Part shown: positions 2,414 to 22,807 of the stretch, one piece after another
How positions within the stretch are numbered: position 1 is the stretch's first letter
Layout: the number at the start of each line of letters is the position of its first letter
The notes under the pieces: model-generated
What the model was told of the DNA's origin: nothing
Database searches by the model: none
Seen by the model: the letters and a program-made list of their open reading frames with translations, nothing else
Translations under genes and position numbers: made by a program
NCBI GenBank assembly: GCA_963843685.1
Contig: CAWJLO010000008.1
Coordinates: 202,027 to 266,026 of the forward strand
Direction of reading: 5' to 3'
Length of the DNA: 64,000 bases
DNA from: an uncultured Chloroflexia bacterium
GTDB taxonomy: Bacteria; Chloroflexota; Dehalococcoidia; DSTF01; JACRBR01

Positions 2414-3415
2414 GTGAGCATGGAATACGTACAAACGGTCATGGCCCGAGTGGCCGCGACGAAATTCGATAAGTCGCTCGAGCCGGGTGGCTTGATGTCG
2501 GAGCTCGAAGGGCACCGCGATTTCGTTGCGGGAACGCGCGGGTCGCGGGGGATGAGCGTCACACGCTCGGCGAACCCCGAAGGCGATGTCTTGGTCGTGG
2601 TTGAGACACGCTGGGCAAACAACAACGCTTTGGCCGATTACTCCGCGAACGAGCCGAACGCGGAGTCCATCTTCCGGCGGCACGAAGACCTCCTGACCTC
2701 CGATGGCCTTCAAGTACACCGCATGCAGTCCGAGGAGACCACATCAGGCGTATCACCGACGAAGGTATACGACCGCCTTGTGCTACCGTTGGCGATTCCG
2801 TTGGGAGTGCTTACATTCGCGCTTCTCGTCATCTACGGCCTCTCCCGCATCTACCTGACGCTTCCCGGTTCGTGGGCCACCCCACTCGCCGCCGGGATCG
2901 CGCTTGGCGTGCTGGGCGTGTCTTGGTACTTCGCGTCTCACCCCGCAGTGCCGCGCTGGCAGATCATGGGGGTGTTTGTCGTCGTGCTGGGCGCGCTCGC
3001 GATCGCAGGTACGGCAGCGGCGGTGTATGACAATCAGCATGCCGAGGTGAAGTCAGTCGAATCTCCCACTCCTGCGTCAGGTACACCCACGGGGAACCAG
3101 GTCATCGACATGGCCGATTTCCAGTTCGAGGACTCCACCGGAGCGAAGAACCCCACCATCACCGTGAGCAGCGGCCAGACGACCATCGATCTCACGAACA
3201 CGGGCGCGGCGAGTCACAACATGCACATATCCAGCGCGAGCGGAGACTACGACTCAAGCATCTGCAAGGTGGGCGGTACTGACCCCTGCTCAGATCCAGC
3301 CCTCATCACCGGTGGGCAGACTGGGAGCATCACGTTGAACCTCGCGCCGGGCACGTACAAGTACCGGTGTGACTTCCACCCGACACAGATGTTCGGAACG
3401 CTCATCGTCAAGTAG
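2414..3415 (+). CDS. Membrane-anchored cupredoxin (type-1 blue copper, auracyanin/plastocyanin-like) fused to an N-terminal ABM-like domain.
   Basis: N-terminal ~110 aa is ABM-like (VLVVVETRWANNNALADY). Three TM helices follow. The C-terminal cupredoxin carries His...Cys-x2-His-x4-Met ligands (HNMHI ... YRCDFHPTQMFG). Confidence 0.75.
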   Translation: MSMEYVQTVMARVAATKFDKSLEPGGLMSELEGHRDFVAGTRGSRGMSVTRSANPEGDVLVVVETRWANNNALADYSANEPNAESIFRRHEDLLTSDGLQVHRMQSEETTSGVSPTKVYDRLVLPLAIPLGVLTFALLVIYGLSRIYLTLPGSWATPLAAGIALGVLGVSWYFASHPAVPRWQIMGVFVVVLGALAIAGTAAAVYDNQHAEVKSVESPTPASGTPTGNQVIDMADFQFEDSTGAKNPTITVSSGQTTIDLTNTGAASHNMHISSASGDYDSSICKVGGTDPCSDPALITGGQTGSITLNLAPGTYKYRCDFHPTQMFGTLIVK

Positions 3416-3478: not shown

Positions 3479-3637
3479 CTTGGTGATGGGAGCTGCGTTC
3501 CCTCCGGCCTTGAGTTGGGTGCATTCGATGGACTCGGCTTCGTCTACTTGGCGCCGCATTGCCGGCCAAATGCATCGGATGTCCGCCCAATAGGCAAGGC
3601 CGGATCGAACACGAGCCCGGAGGAGGGTGACGGAGGG

Positions 3638-4051
3638 TCAGACGATGTTACCGCCGAGCGTCGTGAGCACGACGGCGAAGATCGAGAATGCGAGTGCAAA
3701 ACCCGCGACGAACGCCGTGCTGAACAGTCGGCTATCGAACTTCAGGTGCATGAAGAACAACACGACGAGTGCGAACTTTGCGGCGGAGAGCAGGATCAGT
3801 GCGGTGATGAACGGTTTGCGAGGCATGTCTACGTAGTAGATGGCGACTTCGATACAGGTGATGACAGCCAGCACGAGGCCTACCTGGACGTACTCCATCG
3901 GCCCGGGATGACCACGGTGCACTGGCGCCGTGCCTGCGGGCTGCGATGCGGGCACCAGCAACGACATCGCGGCTATCCCGCCGCCGATCAGCCCCAGGAC
4001 CAGCAGGGGAAGCCCAACCAGCAGCGCCGGGTCGTTGAAGAAGTCGTGCAT
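3638..4051 (-). CDS. ctaF: Cytochrome c oxidase subunit IV (prokaryotic CtaF family) with a ~50-aa N-terminal single-TM extension.
   Basis: C-terminal 86 aa (MEYVQVGLVLAV...FFMHLKFD...) match the Bacillus-type CtaF family with 3 TM. The AGGAG SD sits 8 nt upstream of the ATG at 4051. Confidence 0.75.
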   Translation of the reverse strand: MHDFFNDPALLVGLPLLVLGLIGGGIAAMSLLVPASQPAGTAPVHRGHPGPMEYVQVGLVLAVITCIEVAIYYVDMPRKPFITALILLSAAKFALVVLFFMHLKFDSRLFSTAFVAGFALAFSIFAVVLTTLGGNIV

Positions 4052-16767: not shown

Positions 16768-16850
16768 GACATACGGCGGGGCTTGCCGGCTGTCGAGACT
16801 GCTATCATGGACGGACGCCACCATCCCGCCCGTCTCGTCACGGAGGTGAG

Positions 16851-18291
16851 AGTGACTGACGCCGGACACCTGTCCGAGGCCTTCTTTCGAGACCGCTACG
16901 CCATCGACCCGGCGGTCGCTTCCGACCTCCTCGGCGTGGCGCTGAGCCGGGGCGGCGAGCACACCGAGTTGTTCTTCGAGCATCGGCAGGGATCGAACAT
17001 CACGTTCGAGCAAGAAGCCGTGAAGTCGGCATCGCGCAGCACGACGCAGGGTGTCGGAGTACGGGTGATCCAGGGCGACGCGATCGGCTACGCGTACAGC
17101 GAGGACCTGAGCCGGGAGTCGATGCGGCGGGCGGCGGACACGGCTGCGCGGATCGCGTCGCGCGGCGACCGGCCGCAACCCGTCGACGTGATGCACTACG
17201 AGTCGGCGGACTATTACCAGCCGGCGGCCAGCACCGTGAGTGTCGCGCCGGCGGACAAGGTGGAGCTGATCCGACGGGCCGACCGGGCGGCGCGGGCGTT
17301 CGACGCGACGATCGCGCGGGTGGACATCAATTTCATCGACGAACTGAAGCACGTGCTCATCGTCTCCAGCGATGGGCGGATGACGGGCGACGTGCAGCCG
17401 CTGGTCCGGTTCAACGTGAGCTGCCTCTCGGAGAAGGAGGGGAGCCGGCAGACGGCGCGCTGGGGCGGCGGCGGCCGGATGGGGATGCGCTACTTCGAAA
17501 CGAGCACGCCGGAGTCGCTGGCGCAGGAGGCAGCACGCCAGGCCGTCGTGCTGCAGTCGGCAATCGAGGCGCCGGCGGGCACGTTTCCGGTGGTGCTGGC
17601 CGCGGGCGACAGCGGGATCCTCCTGCATGAGGCGATTGGCCACGGGCTGGAGGCGGACTTCAACCGAAAGAAGACGAGCAACTACAGCGACCAGATCGGC
17701 AACGTGGTCGCTTCTCCGCTGTGCACGGTCGTCGACGACGGCACGATCGAGGACAGCCGTGGCAGCATCAACATCGACGACGAGGGCAACCTGCCGGGGT
17801 ACAACGTGCTGATCGAGGACGGCGTGCTGCGCGGATACCTGCAGGACCGGATGAGCACGAAGCACTTCGGCGTGGGTCCGACGGGCAACGGGCGGCGGCA
17901 GTCGTTCAAGCATCACCCGATGCCCCGGATGACGAACACGTACATGCTGGCAGGAGAGTCGTCGCAGGAGGACATCGTCCGCTCCGTCGACCGGGGGATC
18001 TACTGCGTGTCGTTCAACGGCGGCAGCGTGAACATCAGTAACGGCGACTTCGTCTTCAGCGTGACCGAGGGGTATATGATCGAAGGCGGACGCGTGACAG
18101 CACCGATCCGTAACGTGAACCTGATCGGCAACGGACCTGACGTGCTGCGGAAAGTGACGGCGGTCGGCAGCGACTTCAAGCTGAGCGACGGGCGCTGGAC
18201 GTGCGGGAAGGACGGGCAGTCGGTACCGGTCGGCGTGGGTATCCCGACAACGCTGATCAGCGGGATGACGGTCGGCGGCACGGCGGCGTAA
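16851..18291 (+). CDS. tldD: TldD-family metalloprotease.
   Basis: HEAIGHGLE motif. GTG at 16851 is preceded by GGAGGTGA and gives ~480 aa. Alternative starts are TTG at 16783 or ATG at 16807. Confidence 0.85.
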
Positions 18292-18357
18292 CGAAGAGCA
18301 GATCGGCGGCGTTTCCGCCGAACAATGAATCGAACGTACCGGGAAGGGAGTCTAGAC

Positions 18358-18463
18358 ATGAAGAAGCTGGTTATTCTCGTAGCACTGATCGCGATCGCGG
18401 CGTTCGCGTTCTCGAAGTTCAGCGGCGGCGGCGAGCAGGAAGAGCACGAGTTCGGCGCGTAGC
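18358..18463 (+). CDS. Small 34-aa protein (MKKLVILVALIAIAAFAFSKFSGGGEQEEHEFGA) between tldD and pmbA.
   Basis: Strong SD GGGAAGGGAG 8 nt upstream of the ATG. It has a hydrophobic N-terminal segment and an acidic tail. It is below the ORF-track cutoff. Confidence 0.5.
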
Positions 18464-18548
18464 CCGCATCACTCTGCATTGTCCCGGATAACTTCCGCGC
18501 GACGAGCGCGCTGCGCGTCGGCGTGAGCCGTGTGCGCATCGGAATCGT

Positions 18549-19901
18549 ATGAGAGAAGACCTCCTGTCCATCGCCAGCGACATCGTCGAACGAGCGCGGT
18601 CGCTCGGCGCGGACGAGGCCGACGCATACCTGCTGAGCGGGATCGAGTCGACAGTCACGGTGCGCAAGGGCGAAGTCGAGAAGCTCTTCGAGGCTGGCTC
18701 CCGCACGGTCTCGATCCGCGTGATCAAGGACAAGCGAACGGCCGTCTGCAACACGTCGGACTTCACGCCGAAAGCGCTGAGCGAGATGGTGCGCACGGCG
18801 GTGGATCTTGCGCAGATCAGCGAGCCGGATGAGTTCGCGGGGCTGCCGGCGAAGGAAGACCTCGCGATCGAGATGGGTTCGCTGCTGCAGCTCTACGACG
18901 AGCGCGTGGAGTCGATCAGCGTGGACGAGATGAAGGAGATCGTGCTACGCGCTGAGCAGGCGGCGTTCGACTTCGACAAGCGCATCACGAACTCTGAGGG
19001 GGCGGAGTTCGGCGCGGAGCGCGGCGACCTCGTGCTCGCCAACACGCTGGGCTTCGCCGGAAGCTATCCCTACACGGCGGCGAGCTTCTCCGTCGCGGTA
19101 ATCGCGGACGAGGCTGACGGCAAGAAGCAGAGCGACTACTGGTTCAGCGCCGAGCGGATGTTCCACCGGCTCGCATCGCCAGAGGACGTGGGCCGCCGTG
19201 CAGCCGCGCGGGTCGTGCGCAAGCTCGGTGGGCGGAAGATCAACACGCGCGAGGTTCCCGTCGTGTGGGATCCGGCGATGACGGCAGGGCTGCTAGGCGT
19301 GGTGGCGGGAGCGGCGAGCGGCGAGTCGCTGTTCAAACGCTCGACATTCCTGGCGGACGCCGAGGGGCAGCAGGCGCTTTCGCCGCTCGTGACGATCGTC
19401 GACGACCCGACGCTTCCCGGGCAGCTTGGATCGCGGCCGTTCGACGGCGAGGGCGTGCGAGCGCGGCGTAACCAGATCGTCGAGAGAGGCGTCTTTCAAC
19501 AGTTCCTGTTCGACAGCTACTACGGTCGCCGCATGGGGAGGCGGACGACAGGCAACGCCGCACGGGCCGGCGACAGCATCACTGTCGGCGGGAGCAACCG
19601 GCAGTGGCTCGGCGGAGACTCCGATCCAGCCGCGCTCGTGGCGGACGTGAAGGACGGGCTGTATCTCACGGACTTGATGGGGTTCGGGATCAACCAAACA
19701 ACAGGCGATTTCTCGCGAGGTGCGGCCGGCGTGTGGATCGAGGGCGGCCAGCTGACCTATCCGGTCGTGGAGATCAACGTATCGGGCAACCTGAAGCAGA
19801 TGCTCCGGGACATCGACGGCGTCGGCAACGACGTGCAGTGGTTCGGGGGGAGCGCGGCGCCCACGATCCGCATGTCGAACTTGATGGTGAGCGGACTCTG
19901 A
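18549..19901 (+). CDS. pmbA: PmbA/TldE-family protein (TldD partner).
   Basis: 450 aa with PmbA/TldD-family sequence throughout. Confidence 0.85.
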   Translation: MREDLLSIASDIVERARSLGADEADAYLLSGIESTVTVRKGEVEKLFEAGSRTVSIRVIKDKRTAVCNTSDFTPKALSEMVRTAVDLAQISEPDEFAGLPAKEDLAIEMGSLLQLYDERVESISVDEMKEIVLRAEQAAFDFDKRITNSEGAEFGAERGDLVLANTLGFAGSYPYTAASFSVAVIADEADGKKQSDYWFSAERMFHRLASPEDVGRRAAARVVRKLGGRKINTREVPVVWDPAMTAGLLGVVAGAASGESLFKRSTFLADAEGQQALSPLVTIVDDPTLPGQLGSRPFDGEGVRARRNQIVERGVFQQFLFDSYYGRRMGRRTTGNAARAGDSITVGGSNRQWLGGDSDPAALVADVKDGLYLTDLMGFGINQTTGDFSRGAAGVWIEGGQLTYPVVEINVSGNLKQMLRDIDGVGNDVQWFGGSAAPTIRMSNLMVSGL

Positions 19902-19993: not shown

Positions 19994-20581
19994 ATGTCTT
20001 TGGCGAGCCGCATTGACACGATGACGAAACGCTTCTTGTTCCACGACGCCTTCTGGTTCCGCGTGCCGCTGAAGACGGTGGTCGTCGGACTCTGCGTGTT
20101 CGGAATTCTGACGCTATGGCCAGCGTTCTGGCGGAACGACGCGCACGACCAGGCTCGGGCGGCGTTCGGACTGGTGATCATGGTGGCGTTCGCCCTGCTG
20201 GCGAGCATCTTCACAGTCGCAGTGAACGACGGATACGTGGAGATCGACGACGACGAGCTGTTGATCCGCTTCGAGGCGTTCTTCAACGCGCGCGTGGCAT
20301 TGACCGACATCGTCACGGTGGGGCTGGTCGATCCCCGGCCGCACTGGCGGTACCGATTCGGGCTGTCGACGAATTTCGTCGATCGCATCTCATGCAGCCA
20401 CGGTGGAGCGCTCGTCGAGATAGAGCTGGCGCAGGCCTGCGTCACGAAGCTGTGGCCGCGGCACATCCCCGTGCGGCGGTTCTGGCTCGGCGTGCGGGAG
20501 CCGGAGACGTTCATCGCGAACCTGCGGGAAGCCGTCGGGCAGGCACAGGAGACCGCGCGATACGAGCGCCGAGCAGCCTGA
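19994..20581 (+). CDS. Hypothetical membrane protein (2 TM plus a bacterial PH-like domain).
   Basis: Two N-terminal TM helices followed by a soluble domain. No catalytic motif was recognised. Confidence 0.55.
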   Translation: MSLASRIDTMTKRFLFHDAFWFRVPLKTVVVGLCVFGILTLWPAFWRNDAHDQARAAFGLVIMVAFALLASIFTVAVNDGYVEIDDDELLIRFEAFFNARVALTDIVTVGLVDPRPHWRYRFGLSTNFVDRISCSHGGALVEIELAQACVTKLWPRHIPVRRFWLGVREPETFIANLREAVGQAQETARYERRAA

Positions 20582-20623: not shown

Positions 20624-22807
20624 ATGATTCAACGCGGTGCGTCCCGCGGCATCACTCGTACGACTGCAGTCGCGTTCGGCGTGGCACTCGCGGCGCTATT
20701 GCTGATCGCGCTCTTTCCGATCTTCCCGCGGCAGTTCAGCGTGCGGGTGGGCGACACAGCCTCGCGGACGCTGCGGGCGCCGCGGGCGCTGTCGTTCGTG
20801 AGTGCGTCGCAGACCGCGGCAGACAAGAAACAGGCGGAGGACGCTGTGCCTCCGACGTATGTGTACGACCCCTCGATCCGCACGGCGCAGCTCGCGGAGT
20901 ACGACAAGACCGTCGCGCAGATCGACGAGATCCGCACCGAGAACGCCGACTATCAGCACAAGAACGACGCCCTGGCCCGACTGCAGTTGTCGCCGCGCAG
21001 CATCGACACGGCGATCGGACTATCGGATGAGCGCTGGCAGGCCGTGGCCGCGGAGGGGCGGCGCGTGCTCTCGCAGGTCCTGAACGCGTCGATCGACGAC
21101 GCCAGCGTAGCCGCCACGAAGGACAGCGTCGACTCGCAGATTGCGCCACAGTTCATCGCGGATGAAGCACTCCTAGCGGCGGAGCTGGTCCGACCGCTCA
21201 TCGTTTCAACACAGAAGGTGGATCCGGACAAGACGCAGCAGGCGAAGGCGGCGGCGAGCGCGGCCATCCCGCCGCACGTGGTCAGCGTGGAGAAAGACGA
21301 GACCATCTTGCAGCCCGGCAAGCCCGTCGACGCGCTGACCGTGGAGAAGTTGAAGGAGGAAGGGCTGCTCTCGAACCGCATCGTGATCCGCAACGTGATT
21401 GCGGTCGCGATTGTATCGGCGGTGATCGCGGCGTGCCTGGCGGCATATCTCGTCGTGCTGCGGCCCAAGGGGATCGATTCGGAGCGCCACCTCCTAGCGC
21501 TGGCGCTGGTGGTCGCCTTGCCGCTGCTCGTTGCGAAGTTCTATCTGCCGCTGGTGCTTCCGGACGAGTCGAGACACTTCCTGGCGTTCATGCTGCCGGT
21601 GGCGGTTGCGCCGATCCTGATCGCGGCACTGCTCGAGACGGACGTGGCGGTCGTGGTGTCGCTGGTGATCGGGGCGTTGATCGCGTTCGTGAGCGCGTTC
21701 CTACCGGACATTTCCCTGGTGGCGTCTGTCGGCCCGCTGGACTCGATGCGCCTGATGCTCGTGTACGGAGTCGCGCCGCTGGTGGGCGTGTTCCTGGTGC
21801 ACAGGGCCGACCGGCTCAATCGCTTCCTCACCGCGGGGCTCGCCACCGGCGCGGCGAGCGGCGCTCTACTGGTGGCGACGTGGCTCATCGACGGGGACAG
21901 GACCAACGTCGACCTGGCGTGGATTGCGTTCGCGTGCGGCATGAACGGCGCGGTCGCGGGAGTGCTGGCGGCGGGCGTGTTCGTCACGCTCGGGGTGCTC
22001 TTCGGCGTCACGACGCGGATCCAGCTCATGGAACTGTCGCAACTCAACGCGCCGCTGTTGCGGCGGCTGCAGGACGAGGCACCGGGCACCTTCCACCACA
22101 GCATCATCGTCGGGAACCTGGCTGAGCGCGCGGCGGACCTGATCGGGGCCGACGCGCTGCTGACAAGGGTCGGCTGCTATTACCACGACATCGGCAAGGT
22201 GATGCAGCCGGGAATGTATATCGAAAACATCGCGGGGGCGGAGTCGCCGCACGACGGGATGTCGCCGGAGGAGAGCGCGAGCGTGATCCAGCAGCACGTG
22301 CTCGGCGGCGTGGAGTTGGCGCGGCGGCAGCGGCTGCCGGCGCGGGTACAGGCGTTCATTCCGGAGCATCACGGCACGAGGTTGGTCGCCTTCTTTTATC
22401 GCAAGGCGGCGGAGAAGAACCCGGAGGTAGACCCGGCCCTGTATCAGTACCCCGGGCCGAAGCCACAGTCACGTGAGACCGCAATCGTGATGCTGGCGGA
22501 CTCGACGGAGGCAGTGATCCGCGCGAGTGAAGACCGGTCGACGGAGCGCATCAACCAACTCGTAGACGAAGTGATCGCAGAGCGCGTGGCAGAGGGGCAG
22601 TTGGACGAAAGCGACCTGACACTGCGAGACCTGCGGACGATCGCGGAGTCATTCAAGACGACGATGCGGGCGGTGTACCACCCGCGCGTGAAGTACCCGG
22701 AGCCGACGCCGATGGAGGCACGGCGGCGCGTCCTGCGGCTGCCGATGCGCACGCTGGGCGGGCAGCGGGTGGACGTGCCGGACCCGCGGCGCCGCAAGCT
22801 CGATTGA
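20624..22807 (+). CDS. 7TM receptor with intracellular HD/HDIG phosphohydrolase domain (PgpH/YqfF-like).
   Basis: Large extracellular N-terminal region, seven TM helices, and a C-terminal HD domain (HHSIIVGNLAERAAD...YYHDIGK). Confidence 0.85.
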   Translation: MIQRGASRGITRTTAVAFGVALAALLLIALFPIFPRQFSVRVGDTASRTLRAPRALSFVSASQTAADKKQAEDAVPPTYVYDPSIRTAQLAEYDKTVAQIDEIRTENADYQHKNDALARLQLSPRSIDTAIGLSDERWQAVAAEGRRVLSQVLNASIDDASVAATKDSVDSQIAPQFIADEALLAAELVRPLIVSTQKVDPDKTQQAKAAASAAIPPHVVSVEKDETILQPGKPVDALTVEKLKEEGLLSNRIVIRNVIAVAIVSAVIAACLAAYLVVLRPKGIDSERHLLALALVVALPLLVAKFYLPLVLPDESRHFLAFMLPVAVAPILIAALLETDVAVVVSLVIGALIAFVSAFLPDISLVASVGPLDSMRLMLVYGVAPLVGVFLVHRADRLNRFLTAGLATGAASGALLVATWLIDGDRTNVDLAWIAFACGMNGAVAGVLAAGVFVTLGVLFGVTTRIQLMELSQLNAPLLRRLQDEAPGTFHHSIIVGNLAERAADLIGADALLTRVGCYYHDIGKVMQPGMYIENIAGAESPHDGMSPEESASVIQQHVLGGVELARRQRLPARVQAFIPEHHGTRLVAFFYRKAAEKNPEVDPALYQYPGPKPQSRETAIVMLADSTEAVIRASEDRSTERINQLVDEVIAERVAEGQLDESDLTLRDLRTIAESFKTTMRAVYHPRVKYPEPTPMEARRRVLRLPMRTLGGQRVDVPDPRRRKLD

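Follow-up and report, generated by a model that had tools for sequence, protein, structure and literature searches.

A conserved small gene between tldD and pmbA in a Dehalococcoidia lineage, predicted to encode a one-helix membrane micro-protein

The tldD-pmbA locus and its small ORF

The features around a small open reading frame (ORF) in the window, by which we mean the whole 64,000-nucleotide stretch of DNA analysed here, are collected in Table 1. The gene upstream of the small ORF contains the first, second and third PmbA_TldD Pfam domains and gives its best NCBIfam match to TldD (471 bits); the HExxxH motif appears in its product as HEAIGH in the alignment. In the downstream gene the same three PmbA_TldD domains recur; within NCBIfam it matches PmbA best (298 bits), and HExxxH is absent from its translation. 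Three domains in both genes and an HExxxH in TldD only identify the two as a TldD/TldE pair (MEROPS M103). About 60% of bacterial genomes encode such a pair (PMC10885120). Neither TldD nor PmbA has a signal sequence or a transmembrane segment. For tldD, the listed TTG start (16783) is probably too far upstream, since in loci L008 and L017 the homologue starts about 22-24 residues later (MTTATDTGR...).

Table 1. Features of the tldD-pmbA locus, numbered by position in the window
Feature	Position	Strand	Basis or remark
tldD, M103 metallopeptidase, catalytic subunit	16783..18291	+	Pfam, NCBIfam, HEAIGH
GC-rich hairpin, 7 bp, UCGGCGG-CGUUU-CCGCCGA	18303..18321	+	just 3' of the tldD stop; no U-tract
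Shine-Dalgarno box GGGAAGGGAG	18341..18350	+	7 nt before the ATG at 18358
Small ORF, 34 codons plus TAG	18358..18462	+	translation, conservation, purifying selection
Predicted transmembrane helix, residues 2-22	18361..18423	+	AlphaFold, alignment, Kyte-Doolittle
Short acidic tail, predicted disordered, residues 23-34, GGGEQEEHEFGA	18424..18459	+	alignments; pLDDT 57-62
Spacer between small ORF and pmbA, 86 nt	18463..18548	+	no conservation, no terminator-like site
pmbA/tldE, non-catalytic TldD partner	18549..19901	+	Pfam, NCBIfam, no HExxxH
195-aa hydrophobic ORF 3' of pmbA	19994..20581	+	no Pfam match; weak sub-threshold WsfD match only in NCBIfam
7TM-HD protein	20624..22807		

The two genes and the small ORF lie in a syntenic block with the order thiolase, His_Phos_1, SAM methyltransferase, tldD, small ORF, pmbA, an ORF of about 190 aa and 7TM-HD. 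At the place of the ORF that follows pmbA, L018, L021 and L026 carry ORFs of 178-203 aa that match no Pfam family and stand just before the 7TM-HD (PgpH-like) gene.

A preliminary description of the window had placed a same-strand small gene with a strong ribosome-binding site (RBS) between tldD and pmbA, at 18358-18463. The flanking genes assigned by Pfam and NCBIfam and the Shine-Dalgarno box GGGAAGGGAG bear this out. The start, the ORF and the translation had been given exactly; only the end was one base too far, as the TAG stop (18460-18462) ends at 18462. Read from the ATG, the 34 codons give MKKLVILVALIAIAAFAFSKFSGGGEQEEHEFGA. An in-frame ATG upstream at 18325 would yield a 45-aa version, whose extension has neither an RBS nor conservation; used as a protein-search query, the extended version retrieved only two matches, both near-identical. 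There is no second copy of the small ORF in the 64-kb window. An antisense ORF of 179 aa (18000-18539, minus strand), which overlaps the 3' end of tldD, the small ORF and the start of pmbA, is probably one of the spurious long ORFs typical of GC-rich DNA. An ORF of 34 codons, taken alone, is within chance in DNA of 66% GC, and dozens of spurious ORFs are listed here. The size of the small ORF being unremarkable, the question of chance is settled by comparison with relatives.

Conservation and coding signature of the small ORF

A scan of a genome collection with PmbA gave 16 loci, all from Dehalococcoidia/Chloroflexota metagenome-assembled genomes (MAGs). A homologous small ORF lies 3' of tldD on the same strand in all 12 relatives whose PmbA is at least 66% identical (L001-L011 and L015), that of L009 being the 3' part only, at a contig end. 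Further homologues came from 10 metagenomic or MAG loci and one contig listed without DNA; the contexts of nine divergent profile matches were inspected, and a metagenome scan with the small-protein alignment, which keyed on the hydrophobic N-terminal pattern, gave at least one further locus (L017). Conservation and synteny in relatives, which the preliminary description had put forward as the check on its reading, thus came out in favour of the gene, with a homologue in 12 of 12 close relatives and, flanked by genes of the TldD and PmbA families, in 23 of 23 related Dehalococcoidia/Chloroflexota loci besides the window.

Among the homologues the start codon alternates between ATG and GTG at one fixed position, and a GGAAGGGAG/GAAAGGA box stands 6-9 nt before the start in all 11 complete homologues of the genome scan. 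Length differences between copies are always multiples of three (in-frame indels). Values of dN/dS against the window range from 0.07 to 0.53, with a median of 0.25 over all pairs; the invariant residues K3, L4, F16 and A17 use several synonymous codons, the pooled pN/pS of the helix is 0.37, and GC3 of the homologues is 0.75-1.0. Both spacers around the small ORF are unalignable among relatives, whereas the RBS and the ORF align. Conservation, the RBS, dN/dS, in-frame indels, GC3 and the unaligned spacers together argue for a real protein-coding gene. On this comparative evidence the small ORF is a conserved protein-coding gene under purifying selection. The many spurious ORFs of like size in the region would suit an ORF that arose by chance in the GC-rich spacer DNA; sequence conservation, codon positions, the RBS and the in-frame indels together refute that reading, to which we give practically no weight.

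The neighbours of the small ORF vary. A PAP2 phosphatase gene stands between it and pmbA in L001-L007, L011, L018, L019 and L020, one contig has a DinB_2 gene in the place of PAP2, and in L010 tldD and the small ORF are separated by an unrelated ORF of 87 aa. Nothing is inserted in the window, L008, L015, L017, L021, L026, L028 and L030. The PAP2 genes encode 164-191 aa (2532-3101 in L001, 3416-3988 in L002, 5133-5708 in L018 and 5193-5687 in L019), and no such gene is present at 18463-18548 of the window. The possibility that this 86-nt spacer is the remnant of a deleted PAP2 gene was rejected, as it has no similarity to PAP2 and the window holds no PAP2 homologue. Two more distant Chloroflexota loci, L013 and L014 (identities of about 66% for TldD and about 52% for PmbA), lack the small ORF, their tldD directly adjoining or overlapping pmbA. 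Two loci have tldD and/or pmbA split over several frames (1777-3212 in L003; 2087-3524 and 4001-5356 in L015), most likely through assembly indel errors and not as pseudogenes; each has an unbroken small ORF.

Spacers and transcription signals

Scans found no terminator- or promoter-like sites inside the tldD-pmbA interval, and no Rfam RNA was found in the small-ORF region. The gap from the small ORF to the next gene is 2-17 nt in some relatives and up to more than 300 nt in others; it is pmbA that follows at 2-17 nt in L021, L026 and L028, and in L018 and L028 the next start comes 2-3 nt past the small ORF. From the short gaps and the lack of terminator- and promoter-like sites in the interval we infer that the small ORF is likely co-transcribed with tldD and pmbA.

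GC-rich hairpins of 6-8 bp occur 10-20 nt past the tldD stop in the window, L001 (2340-2358), L002 (about 3242-3259), L008 (about 3683-3702) and L015 (about 3533-3555); their sequences differ and none has a U-tract. The folding energies of the spacers were not better than those of shuffled sequences, so we take the hairpin as a positional observation only; it could reflect a weak terminator, a stabilising element or no function at all. An RNA element was likewise dropped as an explanation, given the empty Rfam, promoter and terminator scans and folds that do not improve on shuffled sequences. In L017 the spacer between tldD and the small ORF (3939-3990) is built of TAGGTT-like short repeats (taggtttaggttctaggtgttaggttgtaggttatagg), found in no other locus.

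The small ORF lies directly upstream of pmbA or PAP2, sometimes at the spacing of 2-3 nt seen in L018 and L028, and a hairpin follows the tldD stop. This arrangement would suit a leader or upstream ORF that needs only to be translated in order to couple or tune the downstream gene, the peptide itself being unimportant. We consider this very unlikely: selection is purifying on the amino acids and the invariant residues vary synonymously, the next gene follows after anything from 2 to more than 300 nt of unconserved spacer, and there is no terminator/antiterminator pair. The ribosome tunnel would hide the helix of a 34-residue chain until termination. Monitoring of the SecM/MifM type should not be able to work here, because the chain would end before the helix leaves the tunnel, and an arrest peptide was rejected on the same ground of chain length.

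Extent of the family and division into helix and tail

A phmmer search of 1.84 billion cluster representatives returned six matches, all belonging to the small-ORF family, and a profile search of a 5.8-billion-sequence collection returned about 100 clusters of it. Almost all of these clusters lack a name or are labelled 'hypothetical', and no Pfam domain is assigned to any of them. Searches of Pfam with the family gave no match, and those of NCBIfam gave only sub-threshold matches to hydrophobic N-termini. As far as these sequences tell, the family is restricted to one group of Dehalococcoidia (Chloroflexota).

Members are 28-38 aa long. Their conserved core is the helix, MKKLLIxVAxIGIAAFAFSK, which is near-unchanged even in distant members; K2, F16 and A17 are invariant in 40 aligned sequences. 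The tail of 8-18 residues is always acidic and variable in sequence, the forms seen including EEHEFGA, SHEPSID(AIDQV), SKEEAQ, RHEEEMP, TATDDPEFA and KGLDDREV; FSGGGEQEEHEFGA is an example of a tail fragment of the small-ORF peptide. The ending EE[HRFYQ]EFG[AGS] is kept only in the sub-clade of the window, and even inside it the His of the EE-x-EFG tail is not conserved, being replaced by R, F, Y or Q. Divergent tails appear at 82-84% TldD identity to the window, and copies that keep EE[HRF]EFG are equally distant. Because tails differ at equal TldD divergence, the helix appears to be the selected unit, with the tail required only to be short and acidic.

AlphaFold, run with the family alignment, predicted one helix over residues 2-22 (pLDDT 94), followed by a tail at pLDDT 57-62. 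The Kyte-Doolittle mean over residues 4-19 is 2.94, the N-terminal flank has a charge of +2 and the tail one of -3, and the helix is bounded by the N-terminal Lys-Lys and by Lys at position 20. The hydrophobic N-terminal segment and acidic tail named in the preliminary description are thus recovered (helix 2-22, pLDDT 94; tail charge -3), and its suggestion of a membrane-anchored micro-protein is, on the model and with this helix as the conserved core of the family, the best-supported reading. The 'GGG hinge' that it placed between the two parts does not hold for the family, occurring only in the window and L001 and partly in L007. As modelled, the peptide would be a generic single-pass micro-protein with one charge-flanked hydrophobic helix, at the short end of the range.

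The 16 uncharged residues between the lysines are short for a transmembrane helix and fit the h-region of a signal peptide too. An A-x-A-like site (AFA|FSK) is present in most copies; of the two candidate sites, the -3 position is Tyr in L008 and the -1 position is Met in L010. Such a Sec signal peptide, cut after AFA or AFS, would release an acidic extracellular peptide of 14-17 residues for signalling or metal binding, in the manner of Phr or AimP. The MKK n-region, an h-region of 13-16 residues and the small -3/-1 residues in most copies (A-F-A|F or A-F-S|K) fit this proposal, as do weak sub-threshold NCBIfam matches of a few members to Phr_nterm and AimP_fam and the His/Glu-rich EEHEFGA end kept in the sub-clade of the window. 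Conservation runs the opposite way, however: the hydrophobic part is near-invariant and the would-be mature peptide changes completely. There is also no helix-breaking c-region, the Tyr at -3 in L008 and the Met at -1 in L010 may depart from the -3/-1 rule, and no receptor, transporter or Rap-like gene lies nearby, so that a secreted peptide seems to us quite improbable. The pattern fits a single-pass membrane micro-protein, and neither a signal peptide with a secreted peptide nor a RiPP-like substrate. A lipoprotein was rejected for want of a lipobox or a conserved Cys, the sole Cys being at position 12 of L011, and a prepilin because the G-F-x-x-x-E motif is missing.

Small one-helix hydrophobic peptides with a charged C-terminus are also known as the Hok, TisB and Fst-type toxins, and by analogy the size, single hydrophobic helix and charged C-terminus of the small-ORF product might recall a toxin of a type I toxin-antitoxin system or another membrane-perturbing peptide. 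Type I loci are mobile and multi-copy, whereas the small ORF is single-copy at a fixed place in a housekeeping operon. Its RBS is strong, conserved and unoccluded, no promoter-like site is found on either strand, and the flanks that would encode an antisense RNA are not conserved; a toxin is highly improbable.

Relation to described families

The closest described family is DLW-39 (NCBIfam NF038356), which is actinobacterial and uncharacterised. Both families begin with MKKLL, have a single hydrophobic helix that ends in FA[FY]SK and finish with a short polar or acidic tail; DLW-39 proteins are about 38-39 aa long with an MKK start and one helix, and members of the small-ORF family have the same helix in 28-38 aa. 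The small-ORF family profile recovers P0099 from the 5.8-billion-sequence database at E=3.4e-4, and P0099 is a true DLW-39 member, scoring 36.5 bits against NF038356. An hhalign comparison of the two families gave 97% probability over the helix (columns 1-31), and 11 of 12 small-ORF family members gave sub-threshold matches to NF038356. The cut-off of 24 bits is not reached: the window scores 15.8 and the members tested 13.9-20.9. The D-L-W-type motif of DLW-39 (ADVWSQATD in P0099) is also missing, with no Trp and no D-[LV]-W in the 40 aligned members, and the contexts differ, P0099 following gyrB-gyrA-DUF3566 and the Chloroflexota members lying between tldD and pmbA. By these sequence measures the small-ORF family falls outside DLW-39. 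Homology is plausible and no more than that, because what the two families share is limited to a hydrophobic, transmembrane segment of biased composition. A literature search found no paper that mentions DLW-39 and none that describes a small ORF between tldD and tldE.

The only two profile matches outside a tldD/pmbA context adjoin gyrase genes (P0099 at 5001-5117 of L022 and P0100 at 1301-1477 of L024), P0100 standing directly after gyrB. P0100 (E=5e-4) was rejected as a family member, since it follows gyrB, is not near tldD and differs in sequence. TldD/PmbA originally entered the literature as 'modulators of DNA gyrase'; the agreement between that name and the gyrase-adjacency of P0099 and P0100 is probably a coincidence. 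The window contains no gyrase genes.

The SE2200 family (NCBIfam NF040843) resembles the small-ORF family in its MKK start and N-terminal hydrophobic helix, and all 12 members gave weak matches to it over residues 1-20. These matches reach 17-23 bits (17.7 for the window, at most 22.9 for relatives) against a cut-off of 30 bits, and SE2200 belongs to an unrelated phylum.

In build, the product is like KdpF, CydX, AcrZ and MgtS, which have about 30-50 residues and one helix, are operon-encoded and have their conservation concentrated in the helix. There is no sequence similarity to any of them, and they adjoin their own membrane complexes, whereas the neighbours here, TldD and PmbA, are soluble. 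By analogy, an accessory micro-protein of this type is most plausibly how the small-ORF product works. It would be a new, lineage-restricted case of the well-known operon-encoded one-helix micro-proteins, as judged from its sequence.

Relation to TldD and PmbA

The known roles of TldD/TldE are in microcin and CcdA processing. The small-ORF product has in common with McbA (the microcin B17 precursor), CcdA and RiPP leaders that it is a short peptide capable of being unfolded, encoded near tldD/tldE. To our knowledge, no known TldD/E substrate has its gene between tldD and tldE. TldD/E recognise substrates regardless of sequence and accept unfolded peptides of at least 15 residues, and the N-terminus of the substrate is the end threaded into them (PMC10885120). 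In the small-ORF product, by contrast with McbA, CcdA and RiPP leaders, that end is a membrane-seeking helix. The neighbours checked (His_Phos_1, SAM methyltransferase, TldD, PmbA, PAP2 or DinB_2, and 7TM-HD) include no RiPP-modifying enzyme (YcaO/McbBCD, LanB/PEARL or radical SAM), and no conserved Cys/Ser/Thr/Gly-rich modifiable core behind a soluble leader is found in the small-ORF family. The absence of modifying enzymes and of a modifiable core, together with the membrane-seeking N-terminus, disfavours a RiPP precursor or dedicated TldD/E substrate.

A broader proposal, raised in outline by the preliminary description as a substrate or partner of the protease pair, makes the small-ORF product a dedicated partner of TldD/PmbA in a three-component system, acting as a tether, regulator, built-in substrate or channel-threading inhibitor. 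In each of the 23 loci examined the gene keeps its place between tldD and pmbA despite insertions of PAP2, DinB_2 and the 87-aa ORF on either side, and because this co-location persists a functional link is possible; the gaps of 2-17 nt to pmbA in L021, L026 and L028 suggest co-translation. A 34-mer would moreover be a competent substrate, given the sequence-independence of TldD/E for unfolded peptides of at least 15 residues (PMC10885120). As the block of about 10 kb is syntenic in the lineage, positional conservation is a weaker argument for coupling, and the gene order may be partly inherited. The two proteins, moreover, lack signal and transmembrane segments, and the predicted topology, with the N-terminus in and the C-terminus out, would leave no more than MKK on the cytoplasmic side, the site of TldD/E action. 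The sole soluble part, the tail, is not conserved family-wide. The alignments of TldD and PmbA contain no indel that splits lineages with the small ORF from those without it, and no other large change that does so; PmbA has only 9 fixed substitutions between them. A docking adaptation in TldD or PmbA was accordingly dropped for lack of distinguishing indels. L013, L014 and most bacteria do without the small ORF, so TldD/E do not need the micro-protein, and a PAP2 gene parts it from pmbA in 10-11 loci. We regard a dedicated partner as unlikely, if worth keeping in view. Less likely still is the more specific form of the idea, a lineage-specific third TldD/PmbA component (tether, gate, substrate or inhibitor) that perhaps belongs to a DLW-39-like one-helix superfamily. 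A direct role with the soluble TldD/PmbA is possible, and the sequence gives no indication of one.

Proposed mode of action and annotation

The explanation that we favour, with moderate confidence and from sequence comparison, is a translated 34-residue single-pass membrane micro-protein of one Dehalococcoidia lineage, expressed from the tldD-pmbA transcription unit. By the positive-inside rule, its Met-Lys-Lys end would be cytoplasmic and its acidic tail translocated. The micro-protein would then act inside the membrane, its helix packing against a larger membrane protein or against itself, like KdpF, CydX and AcrZ. Action within the membrane seems most likely because selection falls on a face of the helix (I6, A14, F16, A17, F/Y18 and K20) and not on the tail. 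Candidate partners would be the product of the membrane ORF at 19994-20581, which may be a conserved but so far undescribed membrane protein, and the 7TM-HD protein (20624-22807); the PAP2 phosphatase encoded next to the small ORF in many relatives would be another. The membrane-protein neighbours vary, as only part of the loci have PAP2 and the rest, the window among them, do not.

The small ORF merits annotation as a gene. A micro-protein locked between tldD and pmbA in one lineage offers a concrete hypothesis on the localisation or regulation of TldD/TldE. Were it a mere operon passenger, it would still be a gene to annotate, and its conserved unit would be the helix alone, to the exclusion of both the 'GGG hinge' and the EEHEFGA tail. 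With about 100 clusters and neither a Pfam nor an NCBIfam model, the family joins the poorly catalogued small membrane proteins of bacteria. Two members already bear names in JGI, flagellar basal body-associated FliL and flagellar biogenesis FliO (P0054 and P0088, respectively); both are N-terminally over-extended calls of the micro-protein, and the names are evidently mis-annotations due to the hydrophobic helix.
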